DNA of 64,000 bases from Podarcis liolepis (Eukaryota). A model generated the notes under the pieces. It made no database searches and was not told the origin of the DNA. It worked only from the letters and a program-made list of their open reading frames with translations. The stretch lies in the NCBI GenBank assembly GCA_965112155.1, contig OZ218102.1; one strand, given 5' to 3'. The translations under genes were made by a program, and so were the position numbers. Shown here piece by piece: positions 4,297-62,987 of this stretch. Positions within the stretch are counted from its first letter, which is position 1, and each line of letters starts with the position of its first letter.

Positions 4297-4943
4297 CTTG
4301 AGACAGAAGGGAGAGGGGTGAGGGAAGAAGAAGAAAAAAAACAGTACCAATATCAGAAATCTACCTTTCAAAAGCACCTAATATTTCAGTCCTAAAGATT
4401 CCTTTGGCATAAGCAGTAATGACATAATCTTTGCAATAGCGGCTTAAGTGTATGTTTTTGTGGTGTTGGCCTGCACAGGCCACCCTAAGCATGTCTTTGT
4501 TTAGAAAGGGGCGTGCTGGTGCAACATTTGATAACTTGGCATAATCACATTAAAGTTATGGTACCTGAAAGATCATCGCACTCCTTTTATTCATAAATTA
4601 TCACTATGCTCTGCAAGAGAGGGCCTCCTTCAGGTACCATCTGATCAAAAGTTCTGTTCCATACAATACAGGAATCAGACCATTACTGTGGTGGCACCTA
4701 CCCTTTTGGTACTCCCACAATTTAAAAGATAGGCACCATTTCTAGTGTATTTCCGTTGGCTAGCAAATACTTTCCTTTTTCAGCAAGCCTTTTAAGTAGA
4801 GATTTTTGTCCCAGTCTGTGCCTGTATTGAGTCTGAAACTCTCTTAACATATGCCATTGTTGCTGGCGTGCCTCTTTATTGCTTCCTAAGACTCCATTTT
4901 TGCTCAGAGTATTAAGGGTAGAATGTCTGTGTAGCAAACTGAC

Positions 4944-17000: not shown

Positions 17001-20000
17001 TGCAGTACCTCCCATAGCCATGCCTTATCACAATCTCTAAAACAGTGGATAGCATTCTCCTCACTGCATTGTATGTGCATGGAACTACTTTGGGAAAGGG
17101 CTATGGCTCAGTAGGGGAACATATGGTTTGCACACAGAAGGTCCCAGATATCTCTGCGCAGGGCTAGAAAGACTTATGGGGAGCTGCTGCCAGTTACAGT
17201 TGGCAATGCTGGACTAGAAGGATCAATAGTCTGATTCAATATAAGGCAGTTTCATCTGTTCTCACTGTGAGAACTGTGAAATTGTATTGTTTTAAGCCTA
17301 TCCAGACAAATCCAGTTCACACACGCATGCAGATTCCTTATTCCTTGACTTCTCAAAACTTGATGACCCACAGCTGAATGCATGAATTGAAATGTATGAA
17401 TGAATGTATGAATTGAAAATTATATCTATAGTCTTTGATCTGTGGCATTTTATTCTAACATACTGGTTGAGGCTACAGTCATTAAGTGATAGGTCTAGTC
17501 TGTGTATGAAGTTCAGCAAAATATGGACTTCTACATACTTAAAACAATAATAGTTATGAAACTTACTTGTAGCATTTTTCCCATCTCTTGTCACCCATTT
17601 CTTTAACAACATGAAGCTCTGAGCAATCAAAGAGTTTGGGTTTTCTACCCGGATTTGATTAATTTCATCAACAGAAAAATTCAGCTCTCTTGCCAGTTCT
17701 ATAACACGGGGGAAATGGAGGGGGGAGAGAGATAACAAAGTTTATTTTGAAAACTCTGTTCAGCAGGTCACACATGGAAAAACCAAGTTTGGTTCAGATT
17801 TCTGCCTTTTCAGTGTAACTTGTCATAGAAATCGGAAAGGAGAAAGTCCTCTGAGAGAGCAGGTATCATTTCATCCTGCTGTCTGAAACCTATCAGCCAC
17901 TGTTTGTGGAGCTTTGGGCTGTATCCTTCCTTCACCAGTTCTACAAACCCCACCCAAGAGAGGTCAAGAGGTTGCACAGTTTCTCTAGTTTCCTGCTGTG
18001 TCTAAATGTAGCCTTCTCCAACCTGCTGCTCTCTAGGTTTTTCGGACCACACCTCGGTCGACAACCCTAGCCAGCATGGCCAACTGTCAGGGATGATGGG
18101 AGTTGTGTTCTAAAACATCAGCAGCAGGCTGAGGAAGTCTGTTCTAATAGGACTAAATCAGGCTTCCAGTCAGGTAGACAATCACTGATGACCTCACAAT
18201 TACTATGTGGCATAGCAACACATTGGCTTCAACTCAAAGAACTGAAGCTGGTGTTTTATGCATGCACCAGGGCTTTCTTGTCTTCACCTCCTCATGTTGT
18301 AAGTTACCCTGAAGACTCAGATAAATCTCTGGAAAGGTATATGATGTAGCAAGAGAACTGCAGTCAGAGAGAGGGGAAATGGCCAAAGCAGACACACAAA
18401 GAGTCTTCAAAGTGCAAACAGGTACCTTCCACTCTCATACAGAATACTTTGAATCCAAACTGTCAAATATTGTATACAAAGCTATAAAATATTTCTGACA
18501 TGCCTGGGGTATGTAGGAGGAAGCAGGAGAAGGCAGCAATGAGAGCTCCATTCTTTTGTCAACAGTGGACAAGAGGGGCATGTCAGGAGATCTGCCTGCT
18601 CCTTGAGCAGGACTGGTCATCTGCCTTACTGCCAAGGCAACATGGCTGCAACCAGTGCCTCTCATGGCCCTGGATGCCCCGTGTGCAGTCAAGATCCTTT
18701 CTGGAAGCTACACAATTTTTAGTGCCTATATTACAATACTAGTTGGTGAGAATGAAGAGAAGACTAACTCGCTGGCTTTGCTTTGGAGAGAGGTCTTTAT
18801 AAAAAGGGCCTTTGTGCTACTTCAAAAGTATTTATTTCTTACATTTCTACAGGACAGATGAGGAAGAATAAACCTTGTTAACCTCTCCCCACCCTACAAT
18901 ATCCGAGGCCTGTGAGGAGACAGGACCAATGCAGTGGATTCTAGAGATAAAATGGGGTAACAAAATTGTGAACAAAAACCCCATGCAACATGTGATGGTC
19001 TCAAGACTAAGTTTCCTGCTTGCCCACCTAATGCTATGAAGCTCGCTAGGGGTGTCCTGACCAGGTTACTATCATGTTAACTGATTGCACAGGGTGGTTG
19101 TGTGGCTGGCACATCAGACTTAGCTCCCTGAAGAAATGATGGGATACAAATGCCACAAATGCTTTATAAACACCAGTTTTATAATCTTCTTCATCTTCGG
19201 CGATCACTCATAGCCAAGTAAGATTGTATTCCATAAACCGTGTTTATGGAAATTTTATAAGGAGTACTACTAGAGCACACTTCATAAAGACTTCTTGCAA
19301 TCTCGCTTGTCCACTGTATCCCTCTTTTTCTGAAGACAAAAGATGCCCTGAGGACTAAACTGCACTCTAACACACACACATATACACCCTCAGCCTGGGT
19401 ATCCAAAGGAATTGCTAGTTGCAATATCATCACCACAAAATAAAATCTTACCCGTCCAACTAAGTCCCAGGTGATCGGCCACTATTGCCATCCTTATATC
19501 TGTCCGTTCACATGGACTCTGTGGACCTGTGATTTATAATTTATTGATTAAAGAGGTGCTGTGAAAGAATTCTTAGCACTAACAGCATTTTAATACATTG
19601 TACTATGTTAACTGGTGCTCAGATCAATTGCTAAAATGACTGAGTGCCCTAAAACCTACAATAAATAAATATATTTTTGTCACAGATTTGAAAAAAAATG
19701 CCACCTTTATAAGGCCGAGTGTCAAACTACATGATGTTAATTGTGTAAATGAAACCAAACATGCCAACAATCTATCTACTCAACTGTTCAACAGTGCTTT
19801 AACTACTGGTGGGGTGGTGGAAAACAGTCCACCAGTACTTAAAGGGGGAAAAAAGTTTTCTCTGTTTGACAAAATGAGGGGTGGTTTTTTTTTGCTGTCA
19901 CAAAATGAAGTCTTCTAAGACCTAAACTAGTACATGAATGTATTTAGCATGCTTCACTAGCTGTCTATAGTATAGGCTTCACTTAGAGGAAGAAAGAAGA

Positions 20001-40942: not shown

Positions 40943-40989
<47 letters not shown>

Positions 40990-43900
40990 TTTTATTTATA
41001 CCTCGCCCTCCCCAGCCAAGACCGGGCTCAGGGCGGCTAACAACCAATAATAAAAACAAGTTGATTAAAATACAATTTAAAAGATTAAGATACAACATTA
41101 AAACAATTAGGGAGCAATGTCTTCATAGGAGGAGAAAGGAAAAGGAAAGAGGGGGAGGGAATCAAATTGGCTCCAAGCCAAAGGCCAGGTGGAACAACTC
41201 TGTCTTACAGGCCCTGCGGAAAGAGATCAGATCCCGCAGGGCCCTGGTCTCAAGAGACAGAGCATTCCACCAGGCTGGGGCCAGTGTTGAGAAGGCTCTG
41301 GCTCTGGTTGAGGCTAATCTAACTTCCTTAGGGCCCGGGACCTCTAGGGTGTTGCTATATGTGGACCTTAAGGTCCTCCGTGGGGCATGCCAGGAGAGGC
41401 GGTCCCGTAGGTACGAGGGTCCTAGGCCGTGAAGGGCTTTAAAAGTCAAAACCAGCACCTTAAATCTGACCCTGTACTCCACCGGGAGCCAATGCAGCTG
41501 GAAAAGCACTGGGTGAATATGCTGCCATGGCAGAGACCCTGTGAGGAGCCTCGCTGCAGCATTCTGCACCCGCTGGAGTTTCTGGGACAGCTTCAGGGGC
41601 AGCCCTGCGTAGAGTGAATTGCAGTACTCAAGCCTGGAGGTGACCATCACATGGATCACTGTGGCCAGGTCGGGGCGGGAAAGGTAAGGGACCAACTGTT
41701 TGATGCGGCGAAGGTGGAAAAATGTCGCCTTGGCTGTTGTTGTACCCTGCGCCTCCATGGAAAGGGAGGCCTCAAGGATTACACCCAAACTCTTAACAGA
41801 AGGCAATGGCACTAATTGGGCCCCCGCAAGAGAAGGGAGTTGGTCCCTCATCCCCATACCATCCCGACCCAGCCAGAGGACCTCTGTCTTTGAAGGATTT
41901 AGTTTCAATTGGCTCCCACGAAACCATCCAGCCACAGCTTCCAAACATCTGGTCAGTATGTCAGGGATTGAGTTGGTCTGGCTATCCATCAGCAGATAGA
42001 GCTGAGTGTCATCAGTATATTGGTGACAACCCAGCCCAAAGCTCCGGATAATCTGGGCAAGGGGGCGCATAAAGATGTTAAAAAGCATCGGGGAGAGGAT
42101 TGCGCCCTGTGGTACTCCATATGGGAGTTGGAACTTAAGAGGTTAAGTTGTTCCCATGATGCCTCAGCATTCTGACGTCAGGAATGGAAGCTGGGAGGAG
42201 CTTTCCTGTCTGTTCCTCTCTAGTCGTTGAGAGAGAGAGGGAGTTTGCCATGTCTGCGAGAAGTCCTGGAAATATCTGAGAAAATGATGCAATAAAAGAG
42301 CTGTAAATGGACATTACTATGCTCTGTGTGTTTGTGGGAAACTGAGTGACAAGTTGCTGCTGTGTTTGACTCTGCTGGGCGTGACGGAGAAGAAGGAGCA
42401 GATTCGCGCAGAGGAAGTGTGCCGGACCTGCCGAAGCTGCCATAAAGAGCTAATTGCCGATAGTAAATCAATTAGCACGTCACGGACTAATCAAAATACC
42501 TACACTCCACACACCAAGGGGTGGCGCGACGACAACTCCCTCCCTAGTGCCACCCTCTGTCCCCGACCAGAGATAAAAGAGCACAGCCATTTATGGGCTA
42601 TGCCCTGTATCCCCACATCGGCGAGGCGGTGGTCCAAAAGATCATGATCGATCATGTCAAATGCTGCTGACAAATCTAAGAGAATCAGCAGTCCCGACCC
42701 GCCTCGATCCAGTTGTCTGCGGAGATCATCTGTTAGGGCGACCAGAGCCGTCTCAGTTCCAAAACCAGGACGGAACTGGACTGAAATGGATTTAAAGCCA
42801 ATGTTTCCTCTAGAAACCTACCAAGCTGGTCAGCAGCTGCTCTCTCAATTACCTTACCCAGATATGGGAGATTTGAAACTGGGTGGTAATTGGATAGATC
42901 TAAAGGATCTAGTGAAGTTTTCTTTAAGAGCGGACACACCATTGCTTCCTTCAGCTCCCCTGGGAATGTCCCTGTGTTAAGGAACAAATTGATAATTTCA
43001 ACCAGAGGGGTCCGCGCGATATCTGGGCATGCCCTAATCAGCCAAGATGGGCACGGATCGAGGAGGCAGGTGGTGGGCCTACCAGCTTGGAGCAGTCTAT
43101 CCACATCTGCAGGGAGTATCTGATTGAAATGTTCTAACACTGGACCCGAAGACAGTCAAGGGGTCTCCAGTTCTGTCACTGTATCTAAATTGGCAGGGAG
43201 GTCACGGCGGAGCAACAGGACTTTCTCCGCAAAAAAGCTCGCAAATGCCTCACAGCTGTGGGTTGAATTTGTGCTTAATTTTGGTTGTCCTCCTAAGGAC
43301 GTTATTGACCTAATTATTCTAAAAAGTTGTGCCGGGTGAGAGCTAGCGGATGCAATGGAAGCTGCAATTTCTTAGCAGCTTTCATAGCCATCTCATAGGC
43401 TTTCATAAGCGTCCTATAAGATGTTCTTTGAGCTCCGTCATGAGTCCATCGCCATACTCGCTCTAGCCGTCTGAGATCCCGCTTCATTTTCCGGAGCTCC
43501 TCGGTAAACCAAGGGACCCAGTTTCGACGGGGTTGCAGAGGGCGCTTGGGCTCAATCTCATCGATGGCCGCCAAGAGCTGGTTATTCCAGTCCTAGACAA
43601 GGTCATCTAATGAGTCGCCAGGAGGAGCAAGGTCCCTCAAGGCAAGACAGAATCTATCAGGATCCATCAGTTTTCGCGGGCGAGCCCAAATAGGCTCGCC
43701 ACCCAAGCAGGGGAGGAGCGGGAAGTCAATCTTGACTTTCAGAGCGTAGTGATCAGACCATGGCACTTCCACAGGGGGGAGCATTATCACATTTATGCCA
43801 GCACCAAAGATCAAATCCAGTGTGTGGCCTGCTTGAGGGGCCGGGCCCATAACAAACTGGGAGAGCCCCAGTGTTGCCATGGAAGTCACTAGGTCCAGAG

Positions 43901-46900
43901 CCTGTGAGGAGGAGGAGGCATCAGCATGGACGTTGAAGACTCCCAAAACCAATAGGTTTGGGAACTCCAAGGCCCACCCTGCCACCACCTCCAGCAGGTC
44001 TGACAAGGTGGCTGCCGGATGCGTTAGGTGGTCGGTACACCAACCAGACAGCCAAGTTCTCCTTGGTGCCCCACAAAACAACAACACATTCAATGCCGGA
44101 GATCGCCAGTGGTGGCAGAGCCCTGAAAAAGCAATCCTCCCGGATCAACAACGCTGCTCCCCCCCCCCGACCCACAGTCCCTGATTGATGGAGAACAGAG
44201 AAACCTGGAGGTGTTATCTCATGTAGGGAGATTACTTCGCCTTCCCGTACCCAGGTCTCTGTCACGCAAGCCAGGTCAATCCCCTGCGAGACAAAAAAGT
44301 CACACATGGTGGCGGTTTTATTGCCTATGGACCTGGCATTGCACAACACCAATGACGGAGGTGGGTGATCCCTGCTCGCCCTACCCTTGTCCCTTGAGAC
44401 GGGGCGTAGATTGGAAGGGGTTCTAGCATCACTGCATCTCAAAACCCTTCGCCGATAGTGATATTTAGCCCCACCGCCATTCTTCCCTAGCCCTTCAATA
44501 GTGGGAATCCCAGACCCCATACTAGCCTCCCCAATAGAGGGGTAAGATCTCACTAACAAGTCATCTCTGGGCCAGGACTCTTGGGTCAGAATGATATGGG
44601 GAAGAGGTGAAGGTTTGATAGGGTAATTATCCCTAGAAGATAAAACCCAACCAACCGCACGCTGAGCAAAGATGTTCAGTTCCTCTGCCAATGAGGCATC
44701 AGTCTTAGCCATGTTCCTTGTATTGCCCTTGTAGTTGGTTAGGTGCTGCAGTCGTTGCCACACTCGTTTCATGATGTTATTGGCTAAATAATTTTCCACC
44801 TTAAGCTTATACTGTTGTTTTGCTGCCTTAATGCCTTTTTTGAGATTTATTCTCGCCTCTCTGTATATGTCTATATTCCCTGTTTTAAAGGCAGAATCCT
44901 GCAGTCATCCATGGTTTACAGTTCCCATAGAGTCTAATGCATCTCTGCGATGTTACATTATCGATGCACACTTTAATATAGGAGAGTATAGCATCTGTGT
45001 ATCTATGCAGATCTTGATGTTCAAACACACGCCAATCAGTGCTCTCAAAACAATCCTGGAGCTGACTAAGAACACCCTCTGGCCAAGTTCTAACTGTTTT
45101 TATAACTGACTGAATTCTTCTCCTGAGAGGGATGTACTTCGGACATAGAAAAACTGAAGAATGGTCGGATGAGCCTAAGTGGGGGAAGGGGATTGCCCTG
45201 TATGCCCGTTTCAAATTGGAATACGCGAGATCTAGAATATTCTGTCCTCTAGTGGGAAATTTCACAAACTGTTCAAACTTAGGAAAAACCCTCTTTAGGC
45301 AGGCTTGATTGAAGTCCCCTGCCACAACAATGGTGTCCTCTGGGTGGATTTGCTGCTGCTCGGAAATGACATCATATAGCTTAGAAAGTGCCGCATTGAC
45401 ATTAGCATCGGATGGAATATAAACAGCTATAATAATTATGACAGTTACTTCTCTAGGCAAATAAAATGGCCGACATGTAACTGCCATCAACTCTAGATCT
45501 GGGGAGCAATACGTGTAAGCTACTTTGCTGTTAACGCACCAACCATTGTGTATGTAAATACAGACTCCTCCGCCCCTAGCTTTACCAGAATCACTGTTTC
45601 TATCAGAGCGATAAATTATTCGATTTATCAGCTCAACTGCCGCATCCGGTACTGCTGAATGTAGCCAAGTTTCTGTAATATTTACCACACAGCTCTCACA
45701 AAGAAGCTTGTTTGCTGCCATCAGTAACTGTAGTTCGTCAATTTTGTGGGTGAGAGATCTGGTGTTGGTCAAGAAGACGCTTGGCAGTGCTGGTCTCGTG
45801 GGTCTTTTTCGAAGCCGGGTTAACAGACCAGCTCTGCAACCACATTTTTGCTTTCACTCTTTTCTCTTTCGCTTCTTTCGGCACTTCCCCCTCCTGTTGA
45901 CAATCCATAGAGATCCTGGAGGTCTTACTATGCAGTTTGATATACAATGGGACCTTTGAAACTCTCTAGTTATCTCTATTTTTCTTGTGAGCCCGATGTT
46001 TACCAGTTTTGTGCGTGAGTAGGTGAGGTATTGGGAGCTCAGAGCCGCAGCGTATGAACGCGCTGCCATCATGGAACGCTAAGTTAAATGAGCATCATTA
46101 ATTCACTTCTGTAACAAATAATTGGGATACTGAAATATATTTCTTAACTGCAAATAGGTTCTTTGGTTGTGTATTTTTCTGCTGGCAAGCATAACAGCAT
46201 ATATGGTATTATATCCATGCCACATGGCACTGTGGTAACGCTATTTGTCTAGTCACCGCCTAATTCACCTTTAATCATTCAAAAACAAACCCAACACATG
46301 TTTCTACTTGCTATTTGCCCAGGCCAAAACAGTAACAGTGCATATATACCTTCATTCATGCCGTTCAGTATTTCAGTGAGGTTTTCATGCCTGCTGTCAT
46401 ACTGATGTTCCTTCCACGTTTCACCGTTTTCACTTCGAAGCACAATCAGTTCTCTTTCCTTTCCTCGCATCGATCCAAAATGAGGGATTTCCACTATGAC
46501 AGGACTACACCAAATAAAAGAAGAAGAAGAAGCAATTCATATTGTACATGCGTTTTTTCAGTTTACTAAGTGCTGCTCCCTTACTCAAGAGTTGTCTGTC
46601 ACACAGCTACAAGTGCGCTCATGGGGGGAAATGGTTAATAATTGGCAAAGCTGCAAAACCCTTTCCAATTCAAATTGCAAGGTTTTTTGTTTGTTTGTTT
46701 TTGTTTTCAATAATCCACTCCAATTACACACTTAGATAAGCACGCACAGGAGTGCTGACATACATCAATTTACACAGACAACAAAAACAAGTTACAAAAA
46801 TGCATATAAGCAAATAAAAAGAAAGGGTTTCAGCAGGCAAGCTTAGATCCTGCACTTGGCTATGCATACATAATGCTATTTACTCAGGGCTGTGTGTACT

Positions 46901-62678: not shown

Positions 62679-62987
62679 GAAGAGCCATAGATCAGTGTCA
62701 GAGTTTTCACACAGAAAATCCCAGGTTCAGTCCCTGGCATCTTGAGGCAGGACTGGGAAATCCTGTCTGAAATGCTAGTGAGTCACTGCCAGGGTTTCCC
62801 AAACATTGGTCTCCAGCTGTTTTTGGACTACACTTCCCATCATCCCCGACTACTGGTCCTAATGGCTAGGGATGATGGGAGTTGTAGTCCAAAAACAGCT
62901 GGAGACCAATGTTTGGGAAACACTGGTAGCTAATGCTGAGTTTGATGGACCAATGGTCTGAGTGGAGGGCAGCTTTGTATGTTCCTA
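62679..62987 (+). mobile_element. tRNA-derived squamate SINE (Squam3-like), interrupted by the MITE above
   Basis: A-box-like CCATAGATCAGTG, B-box-like CCCAGGTTCAGTCCCTGGCATCT, 3' part GATGGACCAATGGTCTGA...GGCAGCTT...ATGTTCCTA. Confidence 0.75.
62790..62925. mobile_element. Palindromic hAT-like MITE (136 bp) nested in a SINE
   Basis: About 57-bp near-perfect inverted arms CAGGGTTTCCCAAACATTGGTCTCCAGCTGTTTTTGGACTACA... / ...TGTAGTCCAAAAACAGCTGGAGACCAATGTTTGGGAAACACTG. Confidence 0.88.

Follow-up and report, generated by a model that had tools for sequence, protein, structure and literature searches.

A junction shared by unrelated loci

How does a retroelement come to begin as one long interspersed nuclear element (LINE) and to end as another, and is such a hybrid a single accident or a family? 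The question is raised by the 64-kb stretch of Podarcis liolepis DNA analysed here (the window; G000:C5:29140001-29204000 of a 1.57-Gb genome), which carries on its minus strand, at 46078-40945, a hybrid LINE with a Rex1-type 5' half, an L2-type 3' part and an (ATT)n tail. A first-pass annotation had described a Rex1-type 5' half beginning at about 46080 and fused to an L2, with two endonucleases and one reverse transcriptase (RT), and our analysis confirms this composition, the Rex1 part occupying 46078-44663 and the L2 part running from 44662. We conclude that the Rex1-L2 hybrid is almost certainly a real family. Our preferred reading of this once-mobile family, which we hold to be rather likely, is that it arose by a jump of the L2 RT and spread in cis by means of a 1518-residue protein combining a Rex1 apurinic/apyrimidinic endonuclease (APE), an L2 APE and an L2 RT.

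A junction query of 401 nucleotides (nt) gave 40 scored matches out of 74 candidates, eight of which, the window included, span the whole query and have identical bases at the joint. Three of these loci, all on C3, have like flanks and represent one insertion multiplied by tandem duplication, and the remaining junction loci are unrelated in their flanks. A further copy, on C21, carries an internal deletion that has one of its ends at the junction. With the C3 trio taken as one and the C21 copy counted, the unrelated flanks give seven independent insertions, six of them with an intact junction. The hybrid copies have the 5' end and the (ATT)n tail in common and their truncations differ among loci; target-site duplications were not consistently found in the full-length copies inspected. 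Tandem duplications were noted at G000:C3:117.94-118.01 Mb, with the three hybrid copies, and at C7:79.72-79.90 Mb, with five Rex1 copies.

Misassembly of the junction is excluded. It is bridged by contigs of independent runs from organisms D and E under a 31-letter rule (E being, by our guess, an RNA run), as well as in organisms A and C, there via a variant lying 31-32 letters from the contig ends; bridging in organism B is borderline, with 28-30 letters. Two raw RNA reads, in about 12% of one run, cross the junction of another copy, but they are too few and possibly intronic and thus are not evidence of expression. The hybrid L037 (G000:C21:3645040-3649000), whose deletion junction is present in organism D, contains patches of pure-L2 bases in its 3' part, and this pattern suggests gene conversion or a further template switch.

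The L2 halves point to a single origin. When CpG columns were masked, a single branch separated the L2 halves of nine hybrid copies from 25 pure L2 copies (ultrafast bootstrap 100; SH-aLRT 99). An 82% outgroup roots outside a group of four chimeric copies and one chimera-type copy; on 772 columns, from which C1b is missing, this group comes out as the sister of the pure lineage (91/85). C1b branches first and has kept ancestral bases at 31 sites across both halves, so that the sources changed by about 1% after the fusion without acquiring a stop or a frameshift. The hybrid 3' ends moreover form a ladder of shared changes. By these trees the L2 halves are one clade produced by successive source elements. 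Together with the eight junction loci and their unrelated flanks, this bears out one option raised in the first-pass annotation, that of a copy of a recombinant family, and its proposed junction search has indeed returned the multiple copies with the same junction that identify a mobile family. Its other option of a one-off insertion at the window site with deletion of the Rex1 3' half has to be rejected because the same junction stands at unrelated loci.

A diagnostic 34-mer had 177 matches at no more than one mismatch and none in the control. All 60 copies newly fetched from among the 100 matches listed proved to be 5'-truncated (median 421 nt); the pure-L2 5' region is reached by none of them, and a single one has the Rex1 5' end. 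The 29 copies of an earlier search were likewise all 5'-truncated. Of 58 copies that could be assigned to a stage, 36 are post-C1b. By extrapolation, hybrid-derived copies would number about 100 or more.

Organization of the window copy

The hybrid and its host exon are arranged as follows, all on the minus strand (ORF, open reading frame; UTR, untranslated region).

46350-46500, minus strand: host ankyrin exon (ZU5 match), upstream of the element
44663-46078, minus strand: Rex1/Babar-type 5' half, with a start codon about 9 nt inside, a basic N-terminus, APE endonuclease 1 and a linker to ...EELNIF(F)A
44885-45853, minus strand: open stretch of the window copy with APE domain 1 (N-x-x-S, ETW, VYIP, GDFN, ILDL, SDH)
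44662-44663, minus strand: Rex1/L2 junction, identical at base level in eight loci
41162-44662, minus strand: L2 ORF2, entered at about codon 13 and comprising the spacer, APE endonuclease 2, the RT and the C-terminal region; disrupted in the window copy
42119-42503, minus strand: insertion of about 385 nt private to the window copy, inside the RT and outside the family; its ends are TG...CA-like and the target duplication measures 5-6 nt
40990-41161, minus strand: L2 3' UTR with terminal stem-loop (z -2.0; stem identical in pure L2)
40945-40989, minus strand: (ATT)n tail

The element sits in the intron that follows the ZU5 exon, in the orientation of the ankyrin gene, which we take to be ANK3-like; the next exon lies at about 39760-39550. 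The Rex1 part of the window copy matches Pfam Exo_endo_phos (E=2.7e-5). This copy is dead, both halves being broken by three stops (45856, 43595 and 43158) and four frameshifting indels, namely a 26-nt deletion at 44902 and frameshifts at 44019, 43368 and 42776. The damage and the private insertion in the RT add to what had been described before. The insertion, to judge from its ends and target duplication, is likely a solo long terminal repeat; it is multi-copy in runs X1, X9 and X14, and X8 is without cover. As had been noted, an ORF at 43921-44799 (GTG start, 292 residues) crosses the junction without a stop, its final 33 or so codons being out of frame, and no Rex1 RT or 3' half follows the L2 tail or lies anywhere else in the 64-kb window. 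Many copies have TTC or TTCC directly upstream of the mapped 5' end (5' flanks of L274, L276, L279, L289, L291, L293, L294 and L297), and the true start is therefore probably 3-5 nt beyond 46078. Elsewhere in the window, at 62786-62929, two 61-nt inverted repeat arms stand 22 nt apart and a related piece is found at 18062-18115; this is probably a small DNA transposon.

Coding capacity and parent families

The family majority, built from 11 copies with the three C3 copies given one vote and large private insertions left out, is 4742 nt long, and the copies are 94.6-97.3% identical to it. It has a single frame from an ATG at nt 10 to nt 4566, encoding 1518 residues in the order Rex1 N-terminus, APE and linker, followed by L2 ORF2 with a second APE and the RT. 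Two full sets of APE motifs lie in this frame, one at residues 101-300 and the other at 587-781, and its RT has YADD; the junction falls at codon 479. The two APE domains are about 23% identical to each other; both nucleases belong to Exo_endo_phos and no further nuclease family was matched. A search of PDB sequences with the Rex1 APE gave nothing significant. As for earlier two-APE hybrids, the junction ORF gave one weak protein match, and among 193 stored proteins two endonuclease (EN) stretches occur in a single one, a tandem EN-RT-EN-RT repeat, which is weak evidence only that such hybrids are lacking.

Pure L2 copies of the parent family are about 5 kb long and consist of an upstream region of about 1.76 kb, with an ORF1 of about 480 residues that has no Pfam match, and of ORF2. 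The L2 label is based on C-terminal motifs which we take to be characteristic of that clade; a Podarcis muralis protein is, at 94%, the closest named one to the ORF2 of pure L2, and the nearest named matches are lizard proteins without clade names. Young copies (L200:2727-7790 and L201:2689-7700) have an intact ORF2, and their ORF1 of about 480 residues ends just before the ORF2 frame opens. Lepidosaur L2 elements are described as lacking ORF1 (PMC13343379; here and below, statements on published work refer to those portions of the sources that were available). In pure L2 the frame of ORF2 opens immediately behind the ORF1 stop. From there it is about 38 nt to the junction position, and the junction thus lies some 13 codons into that frame; the earlier description, in which the L2 part started before its ORF2, was wrong on this point. 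Since the spacer is already open in pure L2, the hybrid has inherited its open spacer and only the phase, one in three, is left to chance. The first-pass suggestion that the frame is open across the junction by chance thus holds for the phase but not for the inherited spacer, nor for a family majority that stayed open over 1518 codons through later sources.

By the exchange the hybrid lost the 1.76-kb L2 5' region with ORF1 and gained 1.45 kb of Rex1. It has the L2-type ORF2 with APE and RT, the 3' stem-loop and the short-repeat tail, and lacks the 5' region and ORF1 proper to L2. The 3' stem is common to hybrid and pure L2 (z -2.0 and -1.1, which is weak).

Longer homologues of the Rex1 part (n=92) are mostly about 850-1010 residues long with RVT_1 and/or PF09004, the best being 48-63% identical. 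A pure Rex1 relative, L051, has RVT_1 together with PF09004, presumably a mark of Rex1. Rex1/Babar elements are reported to have a single ORF that starts near the 5' end, and no ORF1 (PMC13343379); the hybrid, with its ATG at nt 10 of the family majority, is alike in this feature. Nevertheless it is not a member of Rex1 and its 5' half alone is Rex1-derived, because neither the window nor the other hybrid loci contain a Rex1-type RT and 3' end. The donor Rex1 is a large subfamily (1103 first-look candidates) of an age similar to that of the hybrid. It came to light only through a search with the 5' end, the relatives sampled first (80-86%) not being the donor. The subfamily comprises many 3' pieces and at least 13 products, one of them inverted, in which a short 5' piece meets the 3' end (L280, L281, L284, L285, L287, L289, L290, L293, L295 and L297-L300); no long copy was found in it.

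Origin and spread of the hybrid

The search with the 5' end gave 28 matches, 24 of which start at the exact 5' end. At 12 loci a 5' piece of 45-207 nt is joined directly to the donor Rex1 3' end and at two loci the same piece is joined to the L2 3' end; two further loci are inverted, as twin priming would give. The joints of these pieces, whether Rex1- or L2-ended, show an overlap of 0-5 nt or a few extra bases. The two kinds of piece differ at base 52: all eight Rex1-ended ones in which this base is covered have T, and the L2-ended ones have C like the full hybrids, which indicates that the L2-ended pieces came from hybrid RNA. It follows from these products that 3' cDNA was commonly joined to this 5' end with little or no homology. 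The larger hybrids C8 and C1a likewise combine a long 5' with a short 3' part. At L061:8678-9653 a hybrid 5' end stands head-to-head (inverted) to a hybrid-type L2 3' end, which is twin-priming geometry. Non-LTR RTs are capable of homology-free template jumping. Since products of this 5'-piece-plus-3'-end type are common and no founder was found, an RT template jump is the likeliest origin, and we hold it somewhat probable that the hybrid was born when an L2 RT jumped from L2 RNA onto donor Rex1 RNA. The template switch considered in the first-pass annotation is thus upheld as the likeliest event, although it is one that we infer and did not observe.

Once formed, the hybrid would be transcribed from the Rex1 5' end, which would supply promoter and start codon. 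Ribosomes would start at the Rex1 ATG, pass APE 1 and the linker and reach the L2 ORF2, whose RT would bind the L2 3' stem-loop and prime there, so that target-primed reverse transcription would proceed without ORF1. Rex1 itself has no ORF1, and transposition is seemingly independent of the ORF1 esterase activity of some L2 and CR1 elements (PMC13343379). As for the Rex1 endonuclease, it was probably carried along as a passenger whose frame stayed open owing to its position between the start codon and the RT; that it was functional is doubtful.

Spread in cis is suggested by the survival of the frame. Branches leading to the ancestor of the hybrid bear the mark of purifying selection in both halves (ratio of nonsynonymous to synonymous changes, N:S, 0.17-0.23 of that in dead copies, p<0.001), with pre-fusion history included. 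No stop or frameshift was fixed after the fusion. Dead copies have 0.075-0.091 disabling events per substitution, and the probability that the frame survived neutrally is 0.06-0.10 on the 31 changes seen and 0.006-0.015 when scaled to the whole ORF. We infer from this that the source had to stay translatable while its residues drifted, and frame survival speaks for an autonomous hybrid, which we hold to be quite probable.

Several points weigh against this reading as a whole. Changes after C1b are 17N:7S, as in dead copies (Fisher p=1.0) and unlike those on older branches (p=0.0025), so that selection on amino acids after the fusion is not seen and these changes look neutral by their counts; for the Rex1 APE since its split from a donor-type copy there are 6N:5S, too few to judge. 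Frame survival in the Rex1 part alone is compatible with chance (P 0.12-0.35), and none of the hybrid copies found is intact. Pure L2, which shares the 3' stem, was active throughout and retains copies with an intact ORF2, and a helper in trans therefore existed. Of the 58 staged 34-mer copies, 22 represent an early type and could be older than the fusion. As to the jump itself, the junction has no microhomology in comparison with comparable Rex1 and L2 relatives; the Rex1 comparison is with an 80-86% relative only, because no copy of the donor subfamily reaches the junction. Finally, a founder that retained the Rex1 3' half can be lost, which makes its absence weak evidence.

The last two points touch an alternative to the jump, a nested origin. 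On this view a Rex1 copy in the genome received the insertion of a 5'-truncated L2, and the first hybrid RNA was a read-through transcript that ran from the Rex1 promoter as far as the L2 tail. Such a route dispenses with jumping between RNAs, the blunt junction suits an L2 5' truncation point, and it has been proposed for the shuffling of ORF1 (PMC4120745, section 13). The founder that it predicts, with a Rex1 3' half, was however not found: in 40 of 44 scored candidates there is no Rex1 3' half beginning at the junction, none lies 10-20 kb downstream of the hybrid copies checked, and none of 52 donor-type Rex1 loci fetched (a few being the same copy) comes within about 300 nt of the junction. 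Long donor-type Rex1 copies that could have served as target were not found either, whereas jump-like products with this 5' end are common. We regard a nested origin as possible, yet clearly short of probable.

Whatever its origin, the family could have been non-autonomous, its Rex1 end driving transcription and pure L2 protein acting in trans to mobilize the RNA by way of the 3' stem-loop that both have. The neutral-looking N:S after the fusion fits this, as do the stem in common with pure L2, the loss of ORF1 and the presence of intact pure L2, and SINEs (short interspersed nuclear elements) with LINE tails are mobilized in this manner (PMC3747384). The open frame would then be one-in-three luck combined with a short time. 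But such luck in phase would have to be multiplied by the survival of a 4.5-kb frame through 31-56 substitutions (P 0.006-0.10), and ideal passengers with a short 5' and 3' end do exist (L286 and L294) and occur only once each among the 28 matches. We consider mobilization in trans rather unlikely.

Unlikely as well, and slightly more so, is a stronger version of autonomy, that of an inter-clade LINE which used both APEs or in which the Rex1 N-terminus and 5' RNA replaced L2 ORF1 and brought along the Rex1 habit of completing insertions by a jump to the 5' end of the RNA. This would be a new LINE architecture that a single template jump created and whose two parents are still present in the genome. 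Last, a one-off rearrangement, segmental duplication or misassembly at the window site has a practically negligible chance, for although three of the eight junction loci are a tandem duplication, it is refuted by the unrelated flanks and differing truncations of the other loci and by the bridging contigs of independent runs.

Comparison with known retroelements

Recombination is the route by which LINE lineages are believed to replace their 5' ends, and such events are usually inferred long afterwards. In the present case a single genome contains the junction together with the two parent families, copies from early and late stages, and side products of the probable jump. If our preferred reading of an L2-RT jump and spread in cis is true, this is a recent, datable swap of a LINE front end. 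Three matters become open to test: whether L2 is able to operate from a foreign promoter in the absence of ORF1, whether an N-terminal extension of about 480 residues that carries a second endonuclease is put to use or at least tolerated, and whether inter-clade RT jumps found new families.

The available portions of the literature searched contain no Rex1-L2 or two-APE family and no amplified in-frame fusion of two clades; the search did not extend to Repbase or Dfam, where an entry may exist. A vertebrate survey describes one APE and one RT throughout the group and removed chimeric seeds (PMC13343379), so that families of this kind could be lost to standard curation.

Like Dualen/RandI, the hybrid encodes a non-LTR protein with two endonucleases (PMC4640811). 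Dualen however is an ancient group that combines an APE with a restriction-like endonuclease (PMC4640811), whereas the hybrid has two tandem APEs and is recent, and therefore does not fall within that group. The short pieces described above resemble bipartite non-autonomous LINEs (Kojima 2018, PMC5786205) in joining a 5' end to a 3' end. Those elements are amplified non-coding derivatives of one LINE, known from RTE, Ingi, Vingi and R2 (PMC5786205); the short pieces here, derived from Rex1 and the hybrid, each occur singly, and the unit that was amplified stems from two different LINEs and keeps the full frame.

Chimeras and promoter co-option are also described for L1, as in U6/L1, Alu/L1 and RAP1GDS1/L1PA2 (PMC13174262), where as in the hybrid a 5' partner precedes a 5'-truncated LINE in the same orientation. 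Template switching or RNA ligation has been proposed for their formation, and they have been suggested as a source of new 5' UTRs (PMC13174262). Their partners are non-coding RNAs, Alu or mRNAs, and the re-mobilized case amounts to two copies (PMC13174262); the partner in the hybrid is a LINE of another, distantly related clade, the fusion is coding, and it was amplified through successive sources.

A further parallel comes from the CR1-Jockey group, in which ORF1 and 5' parts were exchanged between LINE lineages (Metcalfe and Casane 2014, PMC4120745). There too the 5' part of one lineage came to stand on the ORF2 of another, and 5' truncation with nested insertion, or recombination, has been proposed. 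What was swapped in that group is a separate ORF1, inferred over deep time, with an ORF2 described as constrained and tree-like (PMC4120745). The part gained by the Rex1-L2 hybrid is instead an ORF2 N-terminus with its own APE, joined in frame, and both parent families are present in the same genome.

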